Under the pieces are notes generated by a model, which was given only the letters and a program-made list of their open reading frames with translations, had not been told where the DNA came from and did no database searches. Positions 5,948 through 55,194 of a stretch of 64,000 nucleotides of DNA are shown here, in pieces; position 1 is the first letter of the stretch; every line of letters starts with the position of its first letter. The stretch spans positions 23,946 to 87,945 of the IMG/VR virus record IMGVR_UViG_3300012931_000018. The stretch is one strand, 5' to 3'. The translations under genes were made by a program, and so were the position numbers. Source of the DNA: a virus.

Positions 5948-6945
5948 ATAAAATGGAAAAGAAAAATATTTTAATAACAGGGCATAATGGATTGGTGGGA
6001 TCTGCTTTAGTAAAAATGTTTAAGAACGATGATAGAGAATATAATGTCATTGTTGCACCCAGAAGCAGTTTAGACTTAAAAAGTGAACAAAGTACCAGAA
6101 AATGGTTTGATCAAAGAATTAAAGAAGGCGTTAAGATTGATATGGTAATTTGTTGTGCTGGAAAGGTTGGTGGTATAGTTGCAAATTCTAAATATCCAGC
6201 TGAATTTTTATATGATAATGCTTTGATTGGATTGAATACAATTTCTGCTGCTTATATTTATAACGTAGATAAATTAATTTACTTAGGGAGTAGTTGTGTT
6301 TATCCAAAAACTTTAAAAATTATTGATGAAAATAAATTATTATCCAGTAAACTTGAACCTTCGAATGAAGGATATGCTATTGCTAAAATAATGAACATAA
6401 AACTTGTTGAAAAATTTCATATTGAATATGGTAAAAATTATTATTCAGTAATGCCTTGTAATGTTTATGGATATGGTGATAATTATAATCTTGAAAGTTC
6501 TCATGTTATTCCAGCATTGATTAGAAAATTGCATGAAGCTAAAATGAATAACAATACTGAATTTAATGTTATGGGTAATCCTGAAACACGACGTGAATTT
6601 ACATTTTCAGATACATTGGCTGCTAAGATATATAATTTGATTGAATTTGTTAGTGCAGATTATTTAGATATAGTGTATGGTACTAATTTATTGAACCTTG
6701 GTAGTGGTGTGGAATATACGATGGATAAATTAGTGAAAACAATTTCTAAGGTTGTTGGCTATAAAGGAAAAATAAATTGGACTAATACTGGTGCTGGAGT
6801 TGAAAGAAAATTAATGGACTCGAAAAAACAAAAAGAAATTTTTTCATCATTTGGTTGTTATAATGATTTATATGAACCAGAATTAAGTGAAGGAATAAAA
6901 GTAACATATAATGATTTTTTAACTAATGAAGGATTAAGAAAATAA
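5944..6945 (+). CDS. fcl: GDP-L-fucose synthase
   Basis: ITGHNGLVGSA Rossmann motif, AGKVGGI.AN, LGSSCVYPK, YAIAK catalytic motif, SHVIPALIRK. Confidence 0.95.
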   Translation: MNKMEKKNILITGHNGLVGSALVKMFKNDDREYNVIVAPRSSLDLKSEQSTRKWFDQRIKEGVKIDMVICCAGKVGGIVANSKYPAEFLYDNALIGLNTISAAYIYNVDKLIYLGSSCVYPKTLKIIDENKLLSSKLEPSNEGYAIAKIMNIKLVEKFHIEYGKNYYSVMPCNVYGYGDNYNLESSHVIPALIRKLHEAKMNNNTEFNVMGNPETRREFTFSDTLAAKIYNLIEFVSADYLDIVYGTNLLNLGSGVEYTMDKLVKTISKVVGYKGKINWTNTGAGVERKLMDSKKQKEIFSSFGCYNDLYEPELSEGIKVTYNDFLTNEGLRK

Positions 6946-21765: not shown

Positions 21766-23844
21766 ATGGAGTGTGATATGAAAAAAATAATTTTATTCTT
21801 CTTAATTATAAACTGTGTTTTGATTGCACAATCAAGATGGTCTAATACAAATATCAGTTCGTTATCTCAAGCTACAAATGTTTTATATGTTGATAATAAG
21901 AGAACCGACGTTTATACAGAGGTTGGCACTTATAATTTACCATATAAGACTATCATGGGTGCTATGAATGCTATTACAGGAAATAGTGCAAGCAACAGAT
22001 TTTGCATTAAGATTGCTACTGGAGCTTATTATACTGAAAACATAACAATTAATAAAGATTTTGTAACATTAGAAGGATATGGAGAAACCCTTCTAAGTGG
22101 AACAATAACACTTACAGCTCCACATTTTAGATTAAAGAATCTTAAAACAACAGGTGTAGTTACAGGTACATATACTTCAGCATTTCTTGCTGAAATTTCT
22201 GATTGTTCAGTATCAACTGGAAAGTGGACGGTATCTTGTAGTGTTACTGGCGCTTATGTGCAGATAAGTGGAGGTACTACATTATGGACATCTGATATAG
22301 ATTTATCAGGAGTAACTGGTGTAGTGTCTTGTCAGAGTGGATACTTTGAAGGAACACATACTTTCACAAATTGTTATATGGAAATAATAGGTTTTGAAAA
22401 TTATAATGGGGTTATAAATCTTGAAACTGGTACCGAAATTCATATTGGAGCTTCACTTTGTATAGGAACGACAGTTAACCTTAAAACTGGAGCTACAGCT
22501 TATATAGATGCGACATCAGCCAGTGGAATAACACTTAACAATACAGGTGGTACTTTAGTACTAACTACAGAATCAAACAATATAAACTATGATAATACAA
22601 CAAGTGGCATGACCGCTTCCAATGTAAAAACAGCAATAGATGAATTAAAAACTGAGCTAATAGGAGCTGGAGGAAATTTTGAGCTAATAACAATGACGGG
22701 AAGAAGTATCCTATATGGAGTAGAAGGCACTACCTATAGACCCTTTGCTTCTTATGGTACAACTATTTTTTACGTTGATGGAATTAATGGAACTGATGAT
22801 TTAGAGCATGGTTACGGAACAGGAACATCAGCTTTTGCTACCGTGCAATATGCGGTAGATCAAATACCTGCTTTATGCTATGGAAATGTATATATATACC
22901 TTGCATCAGGTCAAGCATTTGCTGAAAATGTAGTTATACAAGGTAAACAGGTAATAGGGGATTATAATATATATATATCAGGTACTACAACTACTTTGAC
23001 TACAGGTACAACTACTTCTGGTAGTGTTGCTGGTACAGGAAGTACGTTGGGAACTTTAGTAAATAATGCAAGTACTTGGACAGCAAGTGCCTATACATAC
23101 CAATATGTCAAAATAACCAGTGGTGCTTTAAGTGGTCAAATAAGAATGATTAAAGATAACACAGCAAGCACTTTAAGTATACTTGGAGGTTGGGCTACCG
23201 CTCCTGTAAGTGATGTAACTTTTGATATATTGTCAGGCTCTTCAACTAATAATCCACGGTTAAATTCTCTTACTATGAAAGGACAACAGAATGTAATAGT
23301 GGAATTTGTTGCCTTTATTTCAGACACTTCTGGTGTATCAATATGGGGAGAAGCAAACTCACAATCAACAATTAGATATTGCTTTCTTCCTGGCTGTGTA
23401 CTAACTACAGCATGTAAAATGGCTATAATTTCTTGTAATAGTATTGCCTGCACTACAGGTAATGGAGGCATGACAGTAGATTGTTATTCCGGATTAAACA
23501 CTTGGTTTAGGACTTCACGTATTGATATAAAATCTTGTTGGTTTAGAACACTTTTTACAACACAAGTAGGAATAATAAATTTTGACCATTGTTCTGCAGG
23601 TTTTATCTTTGGCAATACTGAAATTACAGGAAATACTTCTGGAGCGTATGCTCCAAGGGGTGTATGGATTGGTAATAATTCATTAGTAGATTTTGAAGGT
23701 ACTAATTATAATATCATAGAGTATCTTACAGTAGGCGTATATGCTACACATGGTGGGGTGGGTTCACCTATAGCTTACAATACATATACAAGTTGCACTA
23801 CAAATAACTCAGCCAATACTACATCTTATGGTTACATAGATTAA
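21766..23844 (+). CDS. Signal-peptide-bearing spike/fibre protein with two beta-helix-like regions (likely start 21778)
   Basis: MKKIILFFLIINCVLIA/Q; beta-helix caps YVD...PYKTI..A and YVDG.NG.D...AFATVQ.A; fibre-type motif YDNTTSGMTASNVKTAIDEL. Confidence 0.7.
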   Translation: MECDMKKIILFFLIINCVLIAQSRWSNTNISSLSQATNVLYVDNKRTDVYTEVGTYNLPYKTIMGAMNAITGNSASNRFCIKIATGAYYTENITINKDFVTLEGYGETLLSGTITLTAPHFRLKNLKTTGVVTGTYTSAFLAEISDCSVSTGKWTVSCSVTGAYVQISGGTTLWTSDIDLSGVTGVVSCQSGYFEGTHTFTNCYMEIIGFENYNGVINLETGTEIHIGASLCIGTTVNLKTGATAYIDATSASGITLNNTGGTLVLTTESNNINYDNTTSGMTASNVKTAIDELKTELIGAGGNFELITMTGRSILYGVEGTTYRPFASYGTTIFYVDGINGTDDLEHGYGTGTSAFATVQYAVDQIPALCYGNVYIYLASGQAFAENVVIQGKQVIGDYNIYISGTTTTLTTGTTTSGSVAGTGSTLGTLVNNASTWTASAYTYQYVKITSGALSGQIRMIKDNTASTLSILGGWATAPVSDVTFDILSGSSTNNPRLNSLTMKGQQNVIVEFVAFISDTSGVSIWGEANSQSTIRYCFLPGCVLTTACKMAIISCNSIACTTGNGGMTVDCYSGLNTWFRTSRIDIKSCWFRTLFTTQVGIINFDHCSAGFIFGNTEITGNTSGAYAPRGVWIGNNSLVDFEGTNYNIIEYLTVGVYATHGGVGSPIAYNTYTSCTTNNSANTTSYGYID

Positions 23845-23919
23845 TAATACACTACTCAATAATATTCTAATATGGGAAATTAATTAACCCAATAAACAAT
23901 TTTTATTAATGGGGTTTAT

Positions 23920-24210
23920 ATGGATATGGAAAAAGAAGTCAAAGATTTAAAAGACAGTGTTCAAACTCTTAGAGATAATGTTCATATTTTACTTGGACGT
24001 AATAATGATTTTATAATTAAAGTAATTAATGGTAAAACAGATGAACGTCTTGCATCAGAACTTATTGGTGAAATGTATCTTGCTATTAAAGAACTGAAGA
24101 AAGAAACACCAAAAAAAATATGGTCTAATTTTGGAGCTTCTTTAATGCCGTTGGTTCAATTATTAACATTAATTGGTTTATTAATAACAATGTTCAAAGT
24201 TTTTTCTTAA
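23920..24210 (+). CDS. Small coiled-coil protein with C-terminal TM (holin-like)
   Basis: Coiled-coil N-terminus, hydrophobic C-terminus. Confidence 0.5.
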   Translation: MDMEKEVKDLKDSVQTLRDNVHILLGRNNDFIIKVINGKTDERLASELIGEMYLAIKELKKETPKKIWSNFGASLMPLVQLLTLIGLLITMFKVFS

Positions 24211-24225
24211 AAAAGGAGGAATCTT

Positions 24226-24537
24226 ATGTCTATTTCAAATGCAAGATTAAGAGCTATTGCTGATTATGAAAGTTCAGGTAATGGCAGTTGGTACATTCTT
24301 TTTAAAGATGGTGCAGAATTAGAATATTACCTGGCAGGTAGTGCAATGAATCCTAATGGTGTAGCAGGTTAGTGGTTCACAGCAGCAAATGAATATGATT
24401 CAGTTTTCTATCCAGATAATGGAAGCCAAACAACTATGTGGTCAAATGATTCATATCCTTATAGTTGTGTTTCTGTTAATGGTGGTGTTAGTGGGTATCC
24501 AATTAATTCTAAATACCATTTCCCAACAACTCCGTAA
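24226..24537 (+). pseudogene. 103-codon gene interrupted by one in-frame TAG (pseudogene or readthrough)
   Basis: SD AGGAGGA, ATG 24226, TAG 24370-24372, frame stays open to TAA 24535-24537, then a terminator. Confidence 0.7.
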
Positions 24538-24548
24538 ATAATATTTTT

Positions 24549-24580
24549 AAATGGTGATAAAATTTTATCACCGTTTTTAT
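24549..24580 (+). terminator. Rho-independent terminator
   Basis: GGTGATAAAATTTTATCACC palindrome followed by GTTTTTATTT. Confidence 0.75.
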
Positions 24581-24606
24581 TTATATAAATAACACAGGAA
24601 AATAAA

Positions 24607-26730
24607 ATGGACACAGGAAAAAAAATTCTTAATGAAAAAAAAGAACATCAAACTAAAACTATATCCATAAGAAGTGATGAAAAATATATTCATCTAACTA
24701 TTAATAAAGAATTTTTAACCACAAAAAATAATTTTGAAATTTATCAAAGCATAATGCTTGCAACATCTCCAATATTTACTAATGAAAATAAAGTCTTATT
24801 TAATAATAGAATAACTGCGGTTCCAAATAAATCTATTACCAAAAAATTATTCCCTCATATAGCATTTTTTATAGAAAATAAATCTCATTATACAGGTGGT
24901 AGATATTCAATGTGGCAACAAGCTGTATTGCTTTCTAATGTTGCTGATGTCACTATTGTAACAAATGCAATTCCAAAATTTAGAGATGATTTTAAACCAT
25001 ATGAAACTGATTTTTTAAAAATCATTGTTAACAATAATTATTTGATTGATAATGAAAATAATGAATTTGATTTGATAATAGGCGTTCCGATAATAGCTGG
25101 TGAATTTGCAACTCAATATGCAAAGAAATTTAATTTACCATTATATCTTCAATTATTTGAAAGTCCAAATTGGGTCAAACAATTTAGAGATTCATCACCT
25201 GATGCTACTGAAGAATTTTGGTCAGGATATAAAGAATGTTTAAAACAAGCTGATAAAATTTTAGTTCCAAGTATTGAAAGTTCAAATTGGTTAAGAAAAT
25301 GGGATGAAAAATTTAATGATATTCCTATATCTGTTATTTATCCTTGCATAAATCAATTTGCTGCTGATTATGTTAAACTTAATTATGGAAGTAAAAGATG
25401 TAAAAATGAAAAAGTTAATCTTGTGATGTCATCAAGAATGACTGATTTCAAATCACCTATGGCAATAATAAAAAAACTCAACAAAGATAAATATGCTTTT
25501 CATTTTATAGGAAAAGTTTGGGATATAACTAATAAAGGTTTGGAAGAACTGAAAAATAAAGGATATGATATAACAGTACATGGAATGATTAATGATGTGG
25601 AAAAATTCAAAATATTAGCAGATTGTGATATCCTTATCCACCCGTCTATTTTTGAAGGTTATGGTATGCCACCGCTTGAGGGTTTTTACGCTAATAGAAG
25701 CGTTATAGCGTATGATTTACCCGTTTTGAGGGAAATATACGGGGATAATATAATTTACGCTAAATTAGGTGATGCTAATGATTTTGCAAATAAAATAGAA
25801 AAAGAAAGTGAAAAAATAAAAAATAATGGATGTTATTATGCTGATAGCAATGTAATTAAATATGCAACAGTCAAATATAATTTAAGTTGTTTAATGACTG
25901 AACTTGATATTCCTAAAATAACTGCCGGTATGATTGTTTATAATGGAATGGATTATATAAAGCAATCAATAGGTTCTATTTATAAAAATTTATTTGAATT
26001 GATTATTGTTGAAGGTGCTGTTAAAGGTTATACTGATGAAAATAATTATACAAGTGCTGATGGAACTATTAAATATTTAGAAGAATCTTTATTAAATGAT
26101 CATATTCATAAAATAAATCTTATCAAGAAAGATAAATTTTGGGAAAATAAAATTGAAATGCAAAATCATATTGCTGAAAATGTAAATGGTGATTTTTATC
26201 TTAAACTTGATCATGATGAAATTTGGAAACCGGAAACTTTAATTGAAGCTATTAATGAATTTTATAAAGATAAAAATTTAATAATGCTTAAAATGCCATT
26301 TTATCATTTTTGGCTTAACTTCAAAACAATAGCTAAAGATGCTGGTGGTAAATGGTCAACTTGCCACCCAAGACTTTGGAGATGGAAAAAAAGTTATAAG
26401 CATACAATTAGTTTTAATCATTTCATAGATACTGAAAATGGTTTACCAGTTATATCTCCATCAAAAGATTTTATTGGAGATCGAATTTATCATTTTGGTT
26501 ATGTAAGAAAATTAAAAATATTGCAAAATAAAATTCATTATTATTCAAATCGTGGAATTGAAAAATTTGTTCAAGATACAGTTACAGATTATTCTGATGG
26601 TAAACCTACTCAACCAACACAAAAAGTAGAATCATGGGCAATTGATTTTGAAGGAACACTTCCAAAAATATTAGATAATCACCCATATAAATCTTTATTA
26701 GACATTAGAAAATATCAAGATGAGGAATAG
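24607..26730 (+). CDS. Two-domain glycosyltransferase (GT4/GT-B fused to GT2/GT-A)
   Basis: HPSIFEGYGMPPLEG...YDLPVLREI (GT4); ITAGMIVYN...IIVEG...LKLDHDE (GT-A DxD). Confidence 0.88.
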   Translation: MDTGKKILNEKKEHQTKTISIRSDEKYIHLTINKEFLTTKNNFEIYQSIMLATSPIFTNENKVLFNNRITAVPNKSITKKLFPHIAFFIENKSHYTGGRYSMWQQAVLLSNVADVTIVTNAIPKFRDDFKPYETDFLKIIVNNNYLIDNENNEFDLIIGVPIIAGEFATQYAKKFNLPLYLQLFESPNWVKQFRDSSPDATEEFWSGYKECLKQADKILVPSIESSNWLRKWDEKFNDIPISVIYPCINQFAADYVKLNYGSKRCKNEKVNLVMSSRMTDFKSPMAIIKKLNKDKYAFHFIGKVWDITNKGLEELKNKGYDITVHGMINDVEKFKILADCDILIHPSIFEGYGMPPLEGFYANRSVIAYDLPVLREIYGDNIIYAKLGDANDFANKIEKESEKIKNNGCYYADSNVIKYATVKYNLSCLMTELDIPKITAGMIVYNGMDYIKQSIGSIYKNLFELIIVEGAVKGYTDENNYTSADGTIKYLEESLLNDHIHKINLIKKDKFWENKIEMQNHIAENVNGDFYLKLDHDEIWKPETLIEAINEFYKDKNLIMLKMPFYHFWLNFKTIAKDAGGKWSTCHPRLWRWKKSYKHTISFNHFIDTENGLPVISPSKDFIGDRIYHFGYVRKLKILQNKIHYYSNRGIEKFVQDTVTDYSDGKPTQPTQKVESWAIDFEGTLPKILDNHPYKSLLDIRKYQDEE

Positions 26731-51337: not shown

Positions 51338-52819
51338 ATGTCTGAAAATATTCAAACATATGATATTGATAGTGAACGTATTGCCTTAAAGGCATTAATA
51401 CAAAAACCTAATTTTGCAAAGCAAGTAATTCTATACAATTTACTTTTTGATGATCATTTTGTAGATTTATTCCACAAAGATATTCTCAATGTGTTTTATA
51501 AATTTTATCGGAAATTTGGTCAATCACCTACATCTAAACAACTCAAACATTATCTTCCAAAGTATATGACATATGTGGATAAGTTCAAAACAAAACAGCA
51601 TCAAATGAAAATTTGGTTAGGTGCTGTAGAACGGCTTTATAATGATATGTCGGAAAATGAAATAAAAAATATTGATGCTTCGGTTAGTATATTGGATGAA
51701 TTGAGAAAAGCAAGAGTTATTCAAAGAGTAATAATAAAAAGTACAAAGAGTTTTGAAACAGGGAATTATGATCGTGTGATAGAAAACTTTTCCGAAGCAA
51801 TTATTGATTCTCGAAAAGTGGAGAATATGATAACTGAAGGAAATATAGTTGATGATTTAGATTATCATATTCAACTTGATAAAAGAATTAAAAGTGGTGA
51901 AGATCGCCCTATATCAACTCATATATTTGGAATATTCGAAGATCAAAAAACTAAAAAAATTAAAAAAGCAGATTTAGATTCTTTATTAACGGGTGGATTT
52001 TATCCTGGTGAAGTTGTATTGTTTGTAGGTGAAGTAAATATAGGAAAGAGTTTTACATTAATGGAAACAGCATATTGTACAAGTCGTTTCGAAAAGAAAA
52101 ATTCAATTCTTTATACCATTGAAATGAATAAGACTAAATGTCAAAGACGTATATATTCACGGGCAACTGGAATACCATATCGAAAATTTAAGATGGGTGA
52201 ATTGACTAAGGATGATAAAGAAAAACTTTATCGTTGGAAAGAAGATTGGAAAAAGAATTGTGGAATATTGGAAGTTGTTAGTTTTGATAAAGGGGCAACT
52301 GTTGGTGATATTGAAAATAAAACGAAAGATATTGAGAATAAGTATGGTGAAGAATTTGAATTAACAGCAATAGATTATTTGAATGACTTAAAACCTATGG
52401 GTAGGTTTCAAAATTCAAAAAGTTGGGATGCTATTGGTGAGATAAGTTGGGACTTGGCAAACTTTTCAAAATTTCATCACAATCATAAAGGCATATCTAC
52501 TATAACAGCGGTACAAAAGAAAACAATTATGTATGGGAAATCTGAAACTAAAGCAGGGAGCGGAGCAATGTCTGCTTTACCGGAGCATCATGCTACAGTT
52601 GCTATTGGATTAGGTCAAAACGATGAAGATAAATTCTATGGGTTAAATGGCAGAATCCGTTATGATATTTTTAAGAGTAGAGATGATAAAAAAGATATTT
52701 CGTTTTATACATTCCCTAATTTCAAGGTTAGCCGGATACATTCAGAGAAAAGTATGCGTTATCATTATCAAGATCAACTTGAAGAATTAAAAAATGAAGA
52801 ATCGCGGGGAAATGAATAA
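51338..52819 (+). CDS. dnaB: Replicative DNA helicase, DnaB family
   Basis: LTGGFYPGEV, GEVNIGKS, TIEM, AIDYL, ITAVQ, KSR. Confidence 0.9.
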   Translation: MSENIQTYDIDSERIALKALIQKPNFAKQVILYNLLFDDHFVDLFHKDILNVFYKFYRKFGQSPTSKQLKHYLPKYMTYVDKFKTKQHQMKIWLGAVERLYNDMSENEIKNIDASVSILDELRKARVIQRVIIKSTKSFETGNYDRVIENFSEAIIDSRKVENMITEGNIVDDLDYHIQLDKRIKSGEDRPISTHIFGIFEDQKTKKIKKADLDSLLTGGFYPGEVVLFVGEVNIGKSFTLMETAYCTSRFEKKNSILYTIEMNKTKCQRRIYSRATGIPYRKFKMGELTKDDKEKLYRWKEDWKKNCGILEVVSFDKGATVGDIENKTKDIENKYGEEFELTAIDYLNDLKPMGRFQNSKSWDAIGEISWDLANFSKFHHNHKGISTITAVQKKTIMYGKSETKAGSGAMSALPEHHATVAIGLGQNDEDKFYGLNGRIRYDIFKSRDDKKDISFYTFPNFKVSRIHSEKSMRYHYQDQLEELKNEESRGNE

Positions 52820-52963: not shown

Positions 52964-53986
52964 ATGAGAAATCTAAATGATATTGTAATAAATGAAGATA
53001 TAGATAATGATGTATTGGAAATAAAAAATAAATTACCAGATGATTTTGATGTTAAAGATTATTTATTAAAAAAAGGAATCGAGTTCAAAGAGCATGAATC
53101 AAGTTCTACTGGAACTTGGTTACAAATGTGTTGTCCATTTCCAGAACATGACGATAAACGTCCAAGTTTTAGTATTAATGTAGAATCTAAATCTTGGAAT
53201 TGTTATGTGTGTGGAAGTGGAAATTGGTTTCAACTTGCTGAAAAAATGGGATGGGAAGATTGGAAAAGTGATCAAGTTTTAATTAATACTATTAGTAATG
53301 AAGATTGGAAAAAGACTAAAAGAAATTTTTCAAAAAGATTAGAAGGTGGTTGCTATGTAGCAATAAAACCTAAAATGAAAAATATAAAACAAGATGATAA
53401 ATATTTTGAATATTTGAAGAATAGAAAAATCGAAAGTAGTATAGATATTTTTGAAATAAAAAGAGGCTCTATATGTTATGATGAAGATTATAATTATAAT
53501 TATAGAAATCGTATTTTAATTCCGGTTCATAATTTAGATGAAACTAAAATATTGTGGTATGAAGGTCGGCACATTGAAGACAAATTCAGTCCGAAATATT
53601 ATAGACCTAATGGTGTTGAAAAAACTAAAGTTATTTTTAATTATCACCGAGTGAAACAATCTGGTTCAAAGAAAGTAATAGTTGTTGAAGGGATAATAGA
53701 TGCAATTACTTTATGGATGTGGGGATATCCGGCGGTATGTATATTTGGATCATCAATAAGTCCTGATCAAATGGAATTGTTAATGTGTTTTGATGAAATT
53801 TATATTTGTTTAGATATTGATAGAGCGGGGATAAAAGGTTTTTTGAAATTCAAAGAATTATGTACAGGATGTGGTGCTTTATTAAAAAGAATAATTATTC
53901 CAAGAGGTAAGGATGCTAACAAATTAAAGAAATTGCAATTTGATGAATTTTATAATCGTTCTAAAAGTATTGATAAAAATAAATAA
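52964..53986 (+). CDS. dnaG: DNA primase (CHC2 zinc finger plus TOPRIM)
   Basis: CPFPEHDDKRPSF...WNCYVC; VVEGIIDA; CLDIDRAG; GKDAN. Confidence 0.92.
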   Translation: MRNLNDIVINEDIDNDVLEIKNKLPDDFDVKDYLLKKGIEFKEHESSSTGTWLQMCCPFPEHDDKRPSFSINVESKSWNCYVCGSGNWFQLAEKMGWEDWKSDQVLINTISNEDWKKTKRNFSKRLEGGCYVAIKPKMKNIKQDDKYFEYLKNRKIESSIDIFEIKRGSICYDEDYNYNYRNRILIPVHNLDETKILWYEGRHIEDKFSPKYYRPNGVEKTKVIFNYHRVKQSGSKKVIVVEGIIDAITLWMWGYPAVCIFGSSISPDQMELLMCFDEIYICLDIDRAGIKGFLKFKELCTGCGALLKRIIIPRGKDANKLKKLQFDEFYNRSKSIDKNK

Positions 53987-54002
53987 ATTGAGCAGTATAA
54001 TA

Positions 54003-54050
54003 TAAATCAGATATAATATCTGATTTAATGAAATTTTTTTTATTTTTTAT
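54003..54050 (+). terminator. Terminator after primase
   Basis: TAAATCAGATA / TATCTGATTTA stem and long T tracts. Confidence 0.6.
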
Positions 54051-54079
54051 TAGGAATCTTAATAATTTTTTTATAAGTT
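54051..54079 (+). promoter_or_regulatory. Possible promoter for the ncRNA
   Basis: TAGGAA-17 bp-TAAGTT in AT-rich context just upstream of the structured RNA; weak match. Confidence 0.3.
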
Positions 54080-54103
54080 AGTAGTAGAAATTATTGACAG
54101 ACT

Positions 54104-54588
54104 GGCTGATTGAATCCTAACTTAAACCGGATTGTTGCTGTTAAAGAAAGAAATAACTGAGCATTAAACTTTCTTAACAGTGTATAAACAAGACTTTAAT
54201 ATTGAGCCAAAAAAATACAGAAAAAGTCTTTTAGAAAAGTTAGGTTCTCTGATGGAGACAAAAACACTACTTTCCAAATCAAAGTAAAACTCATTCTTTT
54301 AATAGTACAAACCTTTCGAAAAAATAACCAAAAAATATCTAACCAAATTCAAAATAACAAAATGCTAACGAAGCAGTTATCTTTGAACCACTTCTTAAAA
54401 TACTGAATGAGAAACTAAGTTAATGTGATACCAATGAGGTGATTGACTTAGAAAAATTTTAAGAGTAATATCGGGATGGAGATGCCTAACTGATACTTAA
54501 AAACTTTGATGGTAGAAATGAAAAAGTGAAAGATCAAGAAACTATGATCACTTCAGGTTCTGAAATAAGAACGGATTTTTGGACAGCG
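54104..54588 (+). ncRNA. Large ornate structured RNA, ROOL-like
   Basis: ORF-free; many helices (54137-150/54169-181, 54190-197/54223-230, 54290-296/54405-411, 54415-424/54442-451), 5'/3' closing pairing, long-range AGTTAGG/CCTAACT; GAAAAGTTAG and TGAAAGAT motifs resemble ROOL as I recall it. Confidence 0.6.
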
Positions 54589-54603
54589 ATTTTTTAATTA
54601 AAA

Positions 54604-54677
54604 GGTCGAAACAAGGAAAGATAAGATTGTGATCTTATCTTTCCTTGTCTTATAATTAAGTTATAACCGATGAGACC
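54604..54677 (+). ncRNA. Type II hammerhead ribozyme, U4C core variant
   Basis: GGTC-GAAAC-[stem III hairpin]-GTC / stem I TTATAAT-TAA-GTTATAA / CCGATGA-GACC; predicted cleavage after C54649. Confidence 0.8.
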
Positions 54678-54717
54678 AAAAAACAAATTAAACAATCAAT
54701 CAAATGAGGAAAACAAA

Positions 54718-55194
54718 ATGAGACAAGCATTAAATAAATATTATTTTGATAAGAATCTTGAATTTGGTTCTGCTATCTATGATAGAAATTTAATTAATGA
54801 ATTAAAAAATGAAATTATAATATTTGAAAAGAATAAAGAAACTGCAAGAACAAAAATGCTTAATTTCATCGATGCTATTGAAAAAGGTATGAAAGTTATT
54901 AATTGTTCCATAAAATTTTTAAATGAAGTTGATACGGGAATTGATGGACTTTATAAAAATTCAGCTGGTCAAATAAATTTTAGACAATGTAGAGATGATG
55001 TTGTGATAACAGGTAATTTGAAATATTTAGGTAAGCAATTAAAACCAATTGATAATTATCATAAGGCAATAGAAAGATTAAGTAGACTTGAAAAGAAATT
55101 TAACGAAACAGCTGTTGGTGCACGTTTATCTTTGAATCCGTTTTCTATAAAGGATGATATTGAAAATATTTCATTCACTATTTATATCAAATGA
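54718..55194 (+). CDS. Hypothetical protein
   Basis: SD GAGGA before ATG 54718; the track start 54670 lies within the ribozyme core. Confidence 0.7.
   Translation: MRQALNKYYFDKNLEFGSAIYDRNLINELKNEIIIFEKNKETARTKMLNFIDAIEKGMKVINCSIKFLNEVDTGIDGLYKNSAGQINFRQCRDDVVITGNLKYLGKQLKPIDNYHKAIERLSRLEKKFNETAVGARLSLNPFSIKDDIENISFTIYIK

Follow-up and report, generated by a model that had tools for sequence, protein, structure and literature searches.

An uncultured wetland phage has a single large gene-free gap; what does it encode? The DNA analysed here, called the window, is the last 64 kb (64,000 nucleotides, nt) of an 87,945-base-pair (bp) phage record with direct terminal repeats, IMG/VR record IMGVR_UViG_3300012931_000018 (positions 23,946 to 87,945). 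The phage is known from wetland metagenomes. Its genome has a GC content of ~27%, and all genes lie on the + strand. A gap of 731 nt, 53987-54717, separates a gene for a DnaG-like primase from a block of ORFans. It is the only large gene-free gap because the second apparent one, 23844-24607, is occupied by small open reading frames (ORFs); the + strand of 53987-54717 holds no ORF of at least 38 amino acids (aa). A preliminary description, made from the letters alone, had placed here a ~485-nt, densely base-paired, ROOL-like RNA followed by a complete hammerhead ribozyme. As an observation it is confirmed in part, and as an interpretation it is supported in part. A hammerhead-class motif does lie directly 3' of a conserved structured non-coding RNA, 40 nt before an ATG; the ROOL-like identity and the extent of the fold were not borne out. 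We think it fairly probable that the gap encodes a transcript leader made of two joined RNA modules, in which the hammerhead would cut the folded leader off the downstream mRNA.

The 3' part of the gap contains a type II hammerhead three-way junction. It was recognised from its sequence, its minimum free energy (MFE) fold, a motif descriptor and its counterpart in a related phage. The parts are as follows.

54604-54677, + strand: the whole type II hammerhead three-way junction
54604-54607, + strand: 3' strand of stem II, GGUC
54608-54610, + strand: G12, A13 and A14
54611-54648, + strand: stem III, from A15.1 to U16.1, with 17 perfect pairs and a 4-nt loop
54649-54650, + strand: C17 (the H17 position), with the predicted cut after C54649 and before U54650 (N1.1), from the core geometry
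54650-54666, + strand: stem I, 7 bp with a 3-nt loop
54667-54673, + strand: core C3 to A9, CCGAUGA
54674-54677, + strand: 5' strand of stem II, GACC, completing a 4-bp stem

The helices are ordered around the core as in the type II permutation of the hammerhead, by both the MFE fold and the descriptor. The pairs that close the junction are present: A54611-U54648 (A15.1-U16.1), G54674-C54607 (G10.1-C11.1) and U54650-A54666 (N1.1-N2.1). The MFE fold of 54590-54690 is exactly this type II junction (z = -5.7), with the perfect 17-bp stem III, a palindrome also recorded as inverted repeat I1. The long hairpin, C54649 at the cleavage position and the spacing to the next gene (ribozyme end at 54677, a Shine-Dalgarno (SD) sequence GAGG at 54706-54709, ATG at 54718) all agree with the preliminary description.

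Could such a motif arise by chance? The type II descriptor, which admits C or U at position 4, has one match in the 88-kb genome on either strand, and this match is 54604-54677. On ~1 Mb of unrelated phage loci it returned two matches only, both with minimal stems. Simulation of 150 genomes from the dinucleotide composition gave 0.13 weak matches per genome and 0 with stems of at least 6/4/8 bp. To judge from its sequence, 54604-54677 is a real, slightly off-consensus member of the type II hammerhead class.

Is the motif kept in related phages? Our comparison covers two phage lineages: the window, and one phage recovered from two samples as L073 (a JGI contig) and L143 (an IMG/VR record of 35.7 kb). 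Primase-based locus searches returned only L073/L143 (primase 55% identical) and L004 (39%). The contigs coding two other primase homologues, P0002 (60% identical) and P0003 (56%; 86 kb), lie outside the comparison, and a locus search with P0008 gave nothing close. The gap had no match in 50,697 phage records by blastn in distant mode. In the same records the best tblastn matches of the primase were Clostridium phages, at 27% identity too distant to compare.

L073/L143 has a 612-nt gap at the corresponding place after its primase gene, and no small ORF is common to the two gaps. A type II hammerhead with the consensus core CUGAUGA lies at the orthologous site. Three pairs of stem I are changed on both sides between the phages. 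Stem II reads GGUC/GACC in the window versus GAUC/GAUU in L073, with one double and one single change. Stem III of L073 is a wholly different, longer hairpin of ~85 nt. Because the junction is kept while the helices drift, a functional ribozyme fold is indicated. The structured RNA upstream, described below, is present in L073/L143 as well, so that the one readable relative carries both elements (n = 2 lineages). Two further pairings were rejected. L073 keeps neither a 12-bp extension of stem II (repeat I10) nor the complementarity between the start-codon region 54718-54727 and the cleavage-site region 54644-54653 (repeat I17); the latter we attribute to chance.

The L073 contig (end 6633) and the L143 contig (end 9378) both stop 30-60 nt into the gene after the hammerhead. 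These shared stops suggest that the cassette is followed directly by a hypervariable region or by the end of the genome.

Similar hammerheads occur more widely. A junction-sequence pattern taken from the window and L073, fixing ~23 positions, found twelve further loci in IMG/VR (L203-L214), all but one or two of them textbook type II hammerheads. They are near-identical and canonical. Upstream, 1-13 nt separate them from the stop of a small ORF; downstream, the next ATG is 23-25 nt away. At most of these loci the next gene codes for a Mor-family transcription activator, as in L204 (hammerhead 2182-2242; Mor-like gene 2268-2567). This intercistronic placement fits the operon-processing role proposed for phage hammerheads (PMC3088659). 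A covariance model, R2, built from eleven of the subfamily hammerheads scores the window at 67 bits (E ~1e-13) and L073 at 60 bits, which is partly circular because the pattern was derived from these two. One locus found with a long-stem-III pattern, L215, was not counted as a hammerhead, having a mismatch next to the core.

What precedes the hammerhead? The window and L073 are most alike at the nucleotide level in 54341-54600. Identical blocks in the two phages are AACCAAATTCAAA, GATACCA, TTAGAAAAATTTT, GGATGGAGATGCC, TGGTAG and TTCTGAAATAAGAA. The fold of the domain was predicted with RNAalifold on the two sequences, window and L073. The leader has the following features.

54104-54340, + strand: variable 5' part of the leader, which barely aligns with L073 and has no supported structure
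54341-54353, + strand: 13-nt block AACCAAATTCAAA, the start of the conserved part, an exact match to L073 6238-6250
54415-54451, + strand: helix H1, an interrupted hairpin of 12 bp whose 3' strand includes the SD-like AGGUG; all pairs kept, 2 doubly changed
54457-54502, + strand: helix H2, a long interrupted hairpin with the identical apical block GGAUGGAGAUGCC; 14 pairs kept, 3 doubly changed
54522-54580, + strand: three-way junction, its closing helix (54522-54527 with 54575-54580) predicted on the alignment
54532-54549, + strand: helix H3, 4 of 5 pairs doubly changed
54557-54572, + strand: helix H4, 1 pair doubly changed

Every pair of the five-helix fold at 54415-54580 is kept in both phages (42 of 42), and 11 are doubly changed. 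When the domain without its closing helix is taken together with hammerhead stems I and II, 100% of the 47 pairs form in both phages. Fourteen of these are doubly changed; shifting the partners by 1-3 columns leaves 0-2. As a control for circularity, the prediction was re-run on 300 column-shuffled alignments. The observed consensus energy of -27.2 compares with -4.2 +/- 2.3 for the shuffled alignments (best -11.0), and the 11 double-change pairs compare with 2.5 +/- 1.6 (maximum 7). The consensus energy is -27.2 on the + strand and only -15.9 on the - strand. G-U pairs are conserved, which indicates that the RNA is read from the + strand.

A linker of 23 nt, A/U-rich, joins the domain to the hammerhead in the window. 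It measures 19-23 nt across both phages, and its end, (A/G)UUAAAAG(G/A)UCGAAA, is conserved in the two. The domain itself is rare. R1, a covariance model of it, found nothing in ~0.9 Mb of other loci, and three DNA-pattern scans of IMG/VR returned L143 only. Seven pattern matches in GTDB genomes were set aside as chance, the domain model rejecting them. By the R1 model and the pattern scans of IMG/VR and GTDB, the domain is found in the window phage and L073/L143 only.

The extent of this RNA differs from the 485 nt of dense base pairing first described. For a sequence of its composition, 54095-54600 has an unremarkable MFE (z = -1.44 on the + strand, -2.4 on the - strand). Only 54341-54580 is conserved, and covariation supports only 54415-54580. 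The long-range helix that was thought to close the large RNA (~54104 with ~54588) competes with the better supported helix 54522-54527 with 54575-54580. The covariation points to a real, rare structured RNA, whose fold is supported over ~170 nt and whose conservation may extend to 240 nt. It falls short of an ornate RNA of 485 nt, and judged by model searches it is unrelated to any Rfam family. A cmscan of the whole window against Rfam 15 gave 0 matches at the gathering score. At E<=10 with permissive filters, 53950-54760 gave only microRNA and snoRNA noise on the long hairpin, and no ROOL, GOLLD, HEARO, RAGATH or riboswitch model matched there. At E<=1, L073 and L004 gave no ROOL or GOLLD and nothing relevant. 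There are no tRNA genes in the window. A ROOL RNA has conserved ornate structure over ~500-600 nt; here conservation covers 54341-54580 only, with ~170 nt in supported helices.

Several smaller observations concern the leader. The H1-type hairpin (GAGATACCAGG.AGGTGGTT) occurs twice in L073 (6208-6235 and 6268-6293) and once in the window, so that the 5' side of the domain differs in module number between the phages. The 3' side of H1 in the window (54433-54441) holds AATGAGGTG, which is also L073 6586-6594, in the ribosome-binding region of the downstream gene of L073. An exposed GGAG in the loop of H2 is a second SD-like sequence inside the leader. The start of the leader in the window (ACTGGCTGAT..., 54101-54116) is identical at 13 of 16 positions to L073 6475-6490, in the apical part of the long insertion that stem III carries in the L073 hammerhead. 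With ~0.4 exact 10-mers expected, the recurrence of ACTGGCTGAT may be coincidental, or it may mark a functional module that was shuffled.

How would the two modules work together? From the observed motifs, their conservation and their covariation we infer a transcription start, a cleavage and which of the products matters. The transcript would run through the variable 5' part, the conserved domain, the linker and the hammerhead to the ATG of the ORFan block, 40 nt on. Once folded, it would be cut by the hammerhead after C54649. The upstream product would keep the 17-bp hairpin of stem III as its 3' end, carrying a 2',3'-cyclic phosphate. The first nucleotide of the downstream mRNA would bear a 5'-OH and lie at the base of the 7-bp stem I hairpin, 56 nt upstream of the SD. 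Since the 4-bp stem II could not hold the products together, the folded leader and the mRNA of the ORFan operon would then part. A 5'-OH can stabilise or destabilise an mRNA, depending on the RNases of the host, as known from the glmS ribozyme and from 5'-end-dependent RNases. An unusually long stem III in both phages is in keeping with an upstream RNA made to persist, though it is no proof of it. Cleavage is probably slower in the window phage than in L073, because C54668 replaces the invariant U4 while the L073 core is consensus.

A bolder version of this account is possible, and we offer it tentatively. The five-helix domain may form the central part of a phage non-coding RNA of a new class, with a hammerhead of its own, rather than a terminator, generating the 3' end. 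Once released, such an RNA could work in trans, for instance serving as a scaffold or decoy in host takeover or against a defence system, and the same cut would start the mRNA of the ORFan operon.

Some findings weigh against a cleaved leader. C54668 sits where the invariant core base U4 should be. It is the only defining element off consensus, and owing to it the window copy of the hammerhead may be weak or dead. The preliminary description had called the hammerhead complete; this holds for the junction, the stems and the other core bases, but not for position 4. A pseudoknot between loop I and the 3' tail is typical of fast type II hammerheads. Here UUAA could pair with UUAA over 4 bp in the window and 3 bp in L073, and this pairing is not convincingly conserved. 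The Rfam hammerhead models match neither the window nor L073, even at E<=10. L004 keeps a gene-free gap of ~630 nt (5958-6584) after its primase gene, but has no hammerhead there, and the domain model found no match in its whole record. Lastly, the domain structure was predicted from the same two sequences that support it, and these represent two lineages only.

How much does the silence of Rfam mean? RF02276, the Hammerhead_II model, gave 0 matches on three phage records. As a control we scored a canonical relative from the intercistronic subfamily, which reached 22 bits (E = 0.011). The gathering score is 37, and 0 of the 12 loci of the subfamily reach it. RF02276 is insensitive to this subfamily, because even a canonical member reaches only 22 bits against the 37 required.

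The strongest rival builds on the same substitution. It holds that the hammerhead is a relic inactivated by U4C, that 54090-54717 is an uncleaved structured 5' untranslated region, and that the 17-bp hairpin is only a stabiliser or a weak terminator or attenuator. A natural U4C variant has considerably lowered activity in vitro, yet retains enough in vivo for viroid infectivity (PMC3088659), so that the same precedent speaks on both sides. The hairpin was flagged as terminator-like, although the U-tract after it is poor. The missing Rfam match also suits a relic. However, C54668 apart, no core base or junction-closing pair is disrupted, and compensatory changes relative to L073 preserve stems I and II, which points to continued selection on the ribozyme fold. 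We regard a relic as a minority explanation, rather unlikely but to be taken seriously. Contigs of the two wetland DNA sequencing runs cover almost none of the stretch and were uninformative about C54668.

A second rival keeps the ribozyme and makes the domain a sensor. Stem II would form in only one state of the domain, ligand- or protein-bound, and the hammerhead would be an allosteric switch for the ORFan operon. The domain and the hammerhead are indeed only 19-23 nt apart in both phages, with a conserved linker end, and stem II is short, open and easily disrupted. Against this, we found no conserved alternative pairing that competes with stem II, no aptamer family matches, and related hammerheads in other phages occur without such a domain. 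A switch of this kind seems unlikely to us.

Still less probable is a gap that acts mainly at the DNA level, as a replication origin or a promoter/operator after the helicase-primase genes, with the hairpins as DNA features. The gap is AT-rich, non-coding, directly after replication genes, and it has a perfect 17-bp palindrome inside. But among the compensated pairs are conserved G-U pairs, for which the opposite strand would have A-C mismatches, and the consensus energy of the + strand is far better than that of the - strand. There are no iteron-like repeats in the gap, and the palindrome sequence is not kept in L073 whereas the hammerhead junction around it is. That the upstream RNA belongs to, or is a distant homologue of, ROOL or GOLLD, as only its size (a ~730-nt gap) and phage setting would suggest, we consider very unlikely, given no large-RNA match at the gathering score or E<=10 in the window or L073, no adjacent tRNA genes, just ~170-240 nt conserved and an unexceptional fold of the whole region.

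If a cleavable leader is the better reading, where would its transcript start, and what would it serve? The gap follows a replication module with an SNF2-type helicase, a DnaB-like helicase and a DnaG-like primase. The flanking features are these.

51338-52819, + strand: DnaB-like helicase gene
52964-53986, + strand: DnaG-like primase gene, the upstream neighbour (Pfam Toprim_2 and Zn_ribbon_DnaG; PHROG 47, DNA primase)
54003-54048, + strand: AT-rich 12-bp hairpin (54003-54014 with 54016-54027), then a T-run; inverted repeat I8, kept in L073
54041-54078, + strand: conserved block, candidate promoter, whose 16-mer 54041-54056 is identical to L073 6041-6056
54706-55194, + strand: SD GAGG (54706-54709) and a 158-aa ORFan with its ATG at 54718

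The hairpin and T-run at 54003-54048 look like a terminator and probably mark the end of the replication operon. The block at 54041-54078 could be the promoter of the leader RNA. Its 16-mer, which occurs once in the window, ends in TTAGGAA, and a TATAAG-like hexamer follows 16-17 nt further on; the block did not pass a sigma-70 scan. Pfam, PHROGs and the ESM Atlas contain no match to the 158-aa ORFan, which is the first of ~10 downstream ORFs with no Pfam or PHROG match. Among sequencing runs, the phage was found in two wetland DNA runs and in no RNA run.

How does this leader compare with known systems? Like ROOL and GOLLD (Weinberg et al. 2017, PMC5737381), the upstream RNA is non-coding, phage-borne, several hundred nt long and of unassigned function. 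Unlike them, it has no covariance-model match, a much smaller conserved core and no tRNA neighbours, and the locus does not extend the ROOL/GOLLD story. RAGATH candidates, structured RNAs found near hammerhead- and twister-associated genes (PMC11061315), also pair an unexplained conserved structured RNA with a nearby self-cleaving ribozyme in mobile or phage DNA. The window RNA matches no RAGATH family in Rfam, and differs in being joined to its predicted ribozyme in what would be one transcript, across a 19-23 nt linker. The glmS ribozyme reportedly cleaves itself within a 5' leader, and the 5'-OH that the mRNA then carries determines how stable it is. The window likewise has a self-cleaving-type RNA in a 5' leader and a predicted 5'-OH on the mRNA. 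It belongs to another ribozyme class, however, and glmS is metabolite-dependent whereas no ligand dependence is indicated for the window.

The closest likeness is to hammerheads themselves. With the type II hammerheads (Perreault et al. 2011, PMC3088659; RF02276) the window shares the G10.1-C11.1 pair, GAAA, the A15.1-U16.1 pair, the GUC triplet and the CNGAUGA core order. It departs from the usual members in having C for U4, a long stem III (17 bp; ~85 nt in L073), no clear pseudoknot and no RF02276 score. With L203-L214 it shares the junction GGUC or GAUC, GAAAC ... GUC UUA ... UAA CUGAUGA, GACC or GAUC (the window core having C at position 4), and in both the hammerhead is placed ahead of an SD and ATG. 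Those loci have a stem III of 8-10 bp with a conserved loop, an ATG 23-25 nt downstream rather than 40 nt after the ribozyme, and, unlike the window, no upstream structured domain, R1 finding none. This subfamily falls below the Rfam type II threshold; it escapes standard annotation and is under-counted in viromes.

The role of bacterial and phage hammerheads has been debated since their discovery in thousands of genomes in 2011, the leading idea being that they cut operon transcripts into separate messages. The clustered prophage hammerheads were proposed to cut polycistronic RNAs into single messages (PMC3088659), and like them the window hammerhead stands in a phage operon just before a gene. 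What differs from the usual phage setting is the upstream 'cistron', here a structured non-coding RNA and not a protein gene. A hammerhead placed after a folded non-coding RNA may also define the 3' end of an RNA product. The window and L073 further provide an orthologous natural pair, U4C against a consensus core, which is a ready-made test of the core variation that phages tolerate. The phage hammerhead class itself is known; its fusion to an undescribed structured RNA is a fresh variation on the hammerhead cassettes already described in phages.

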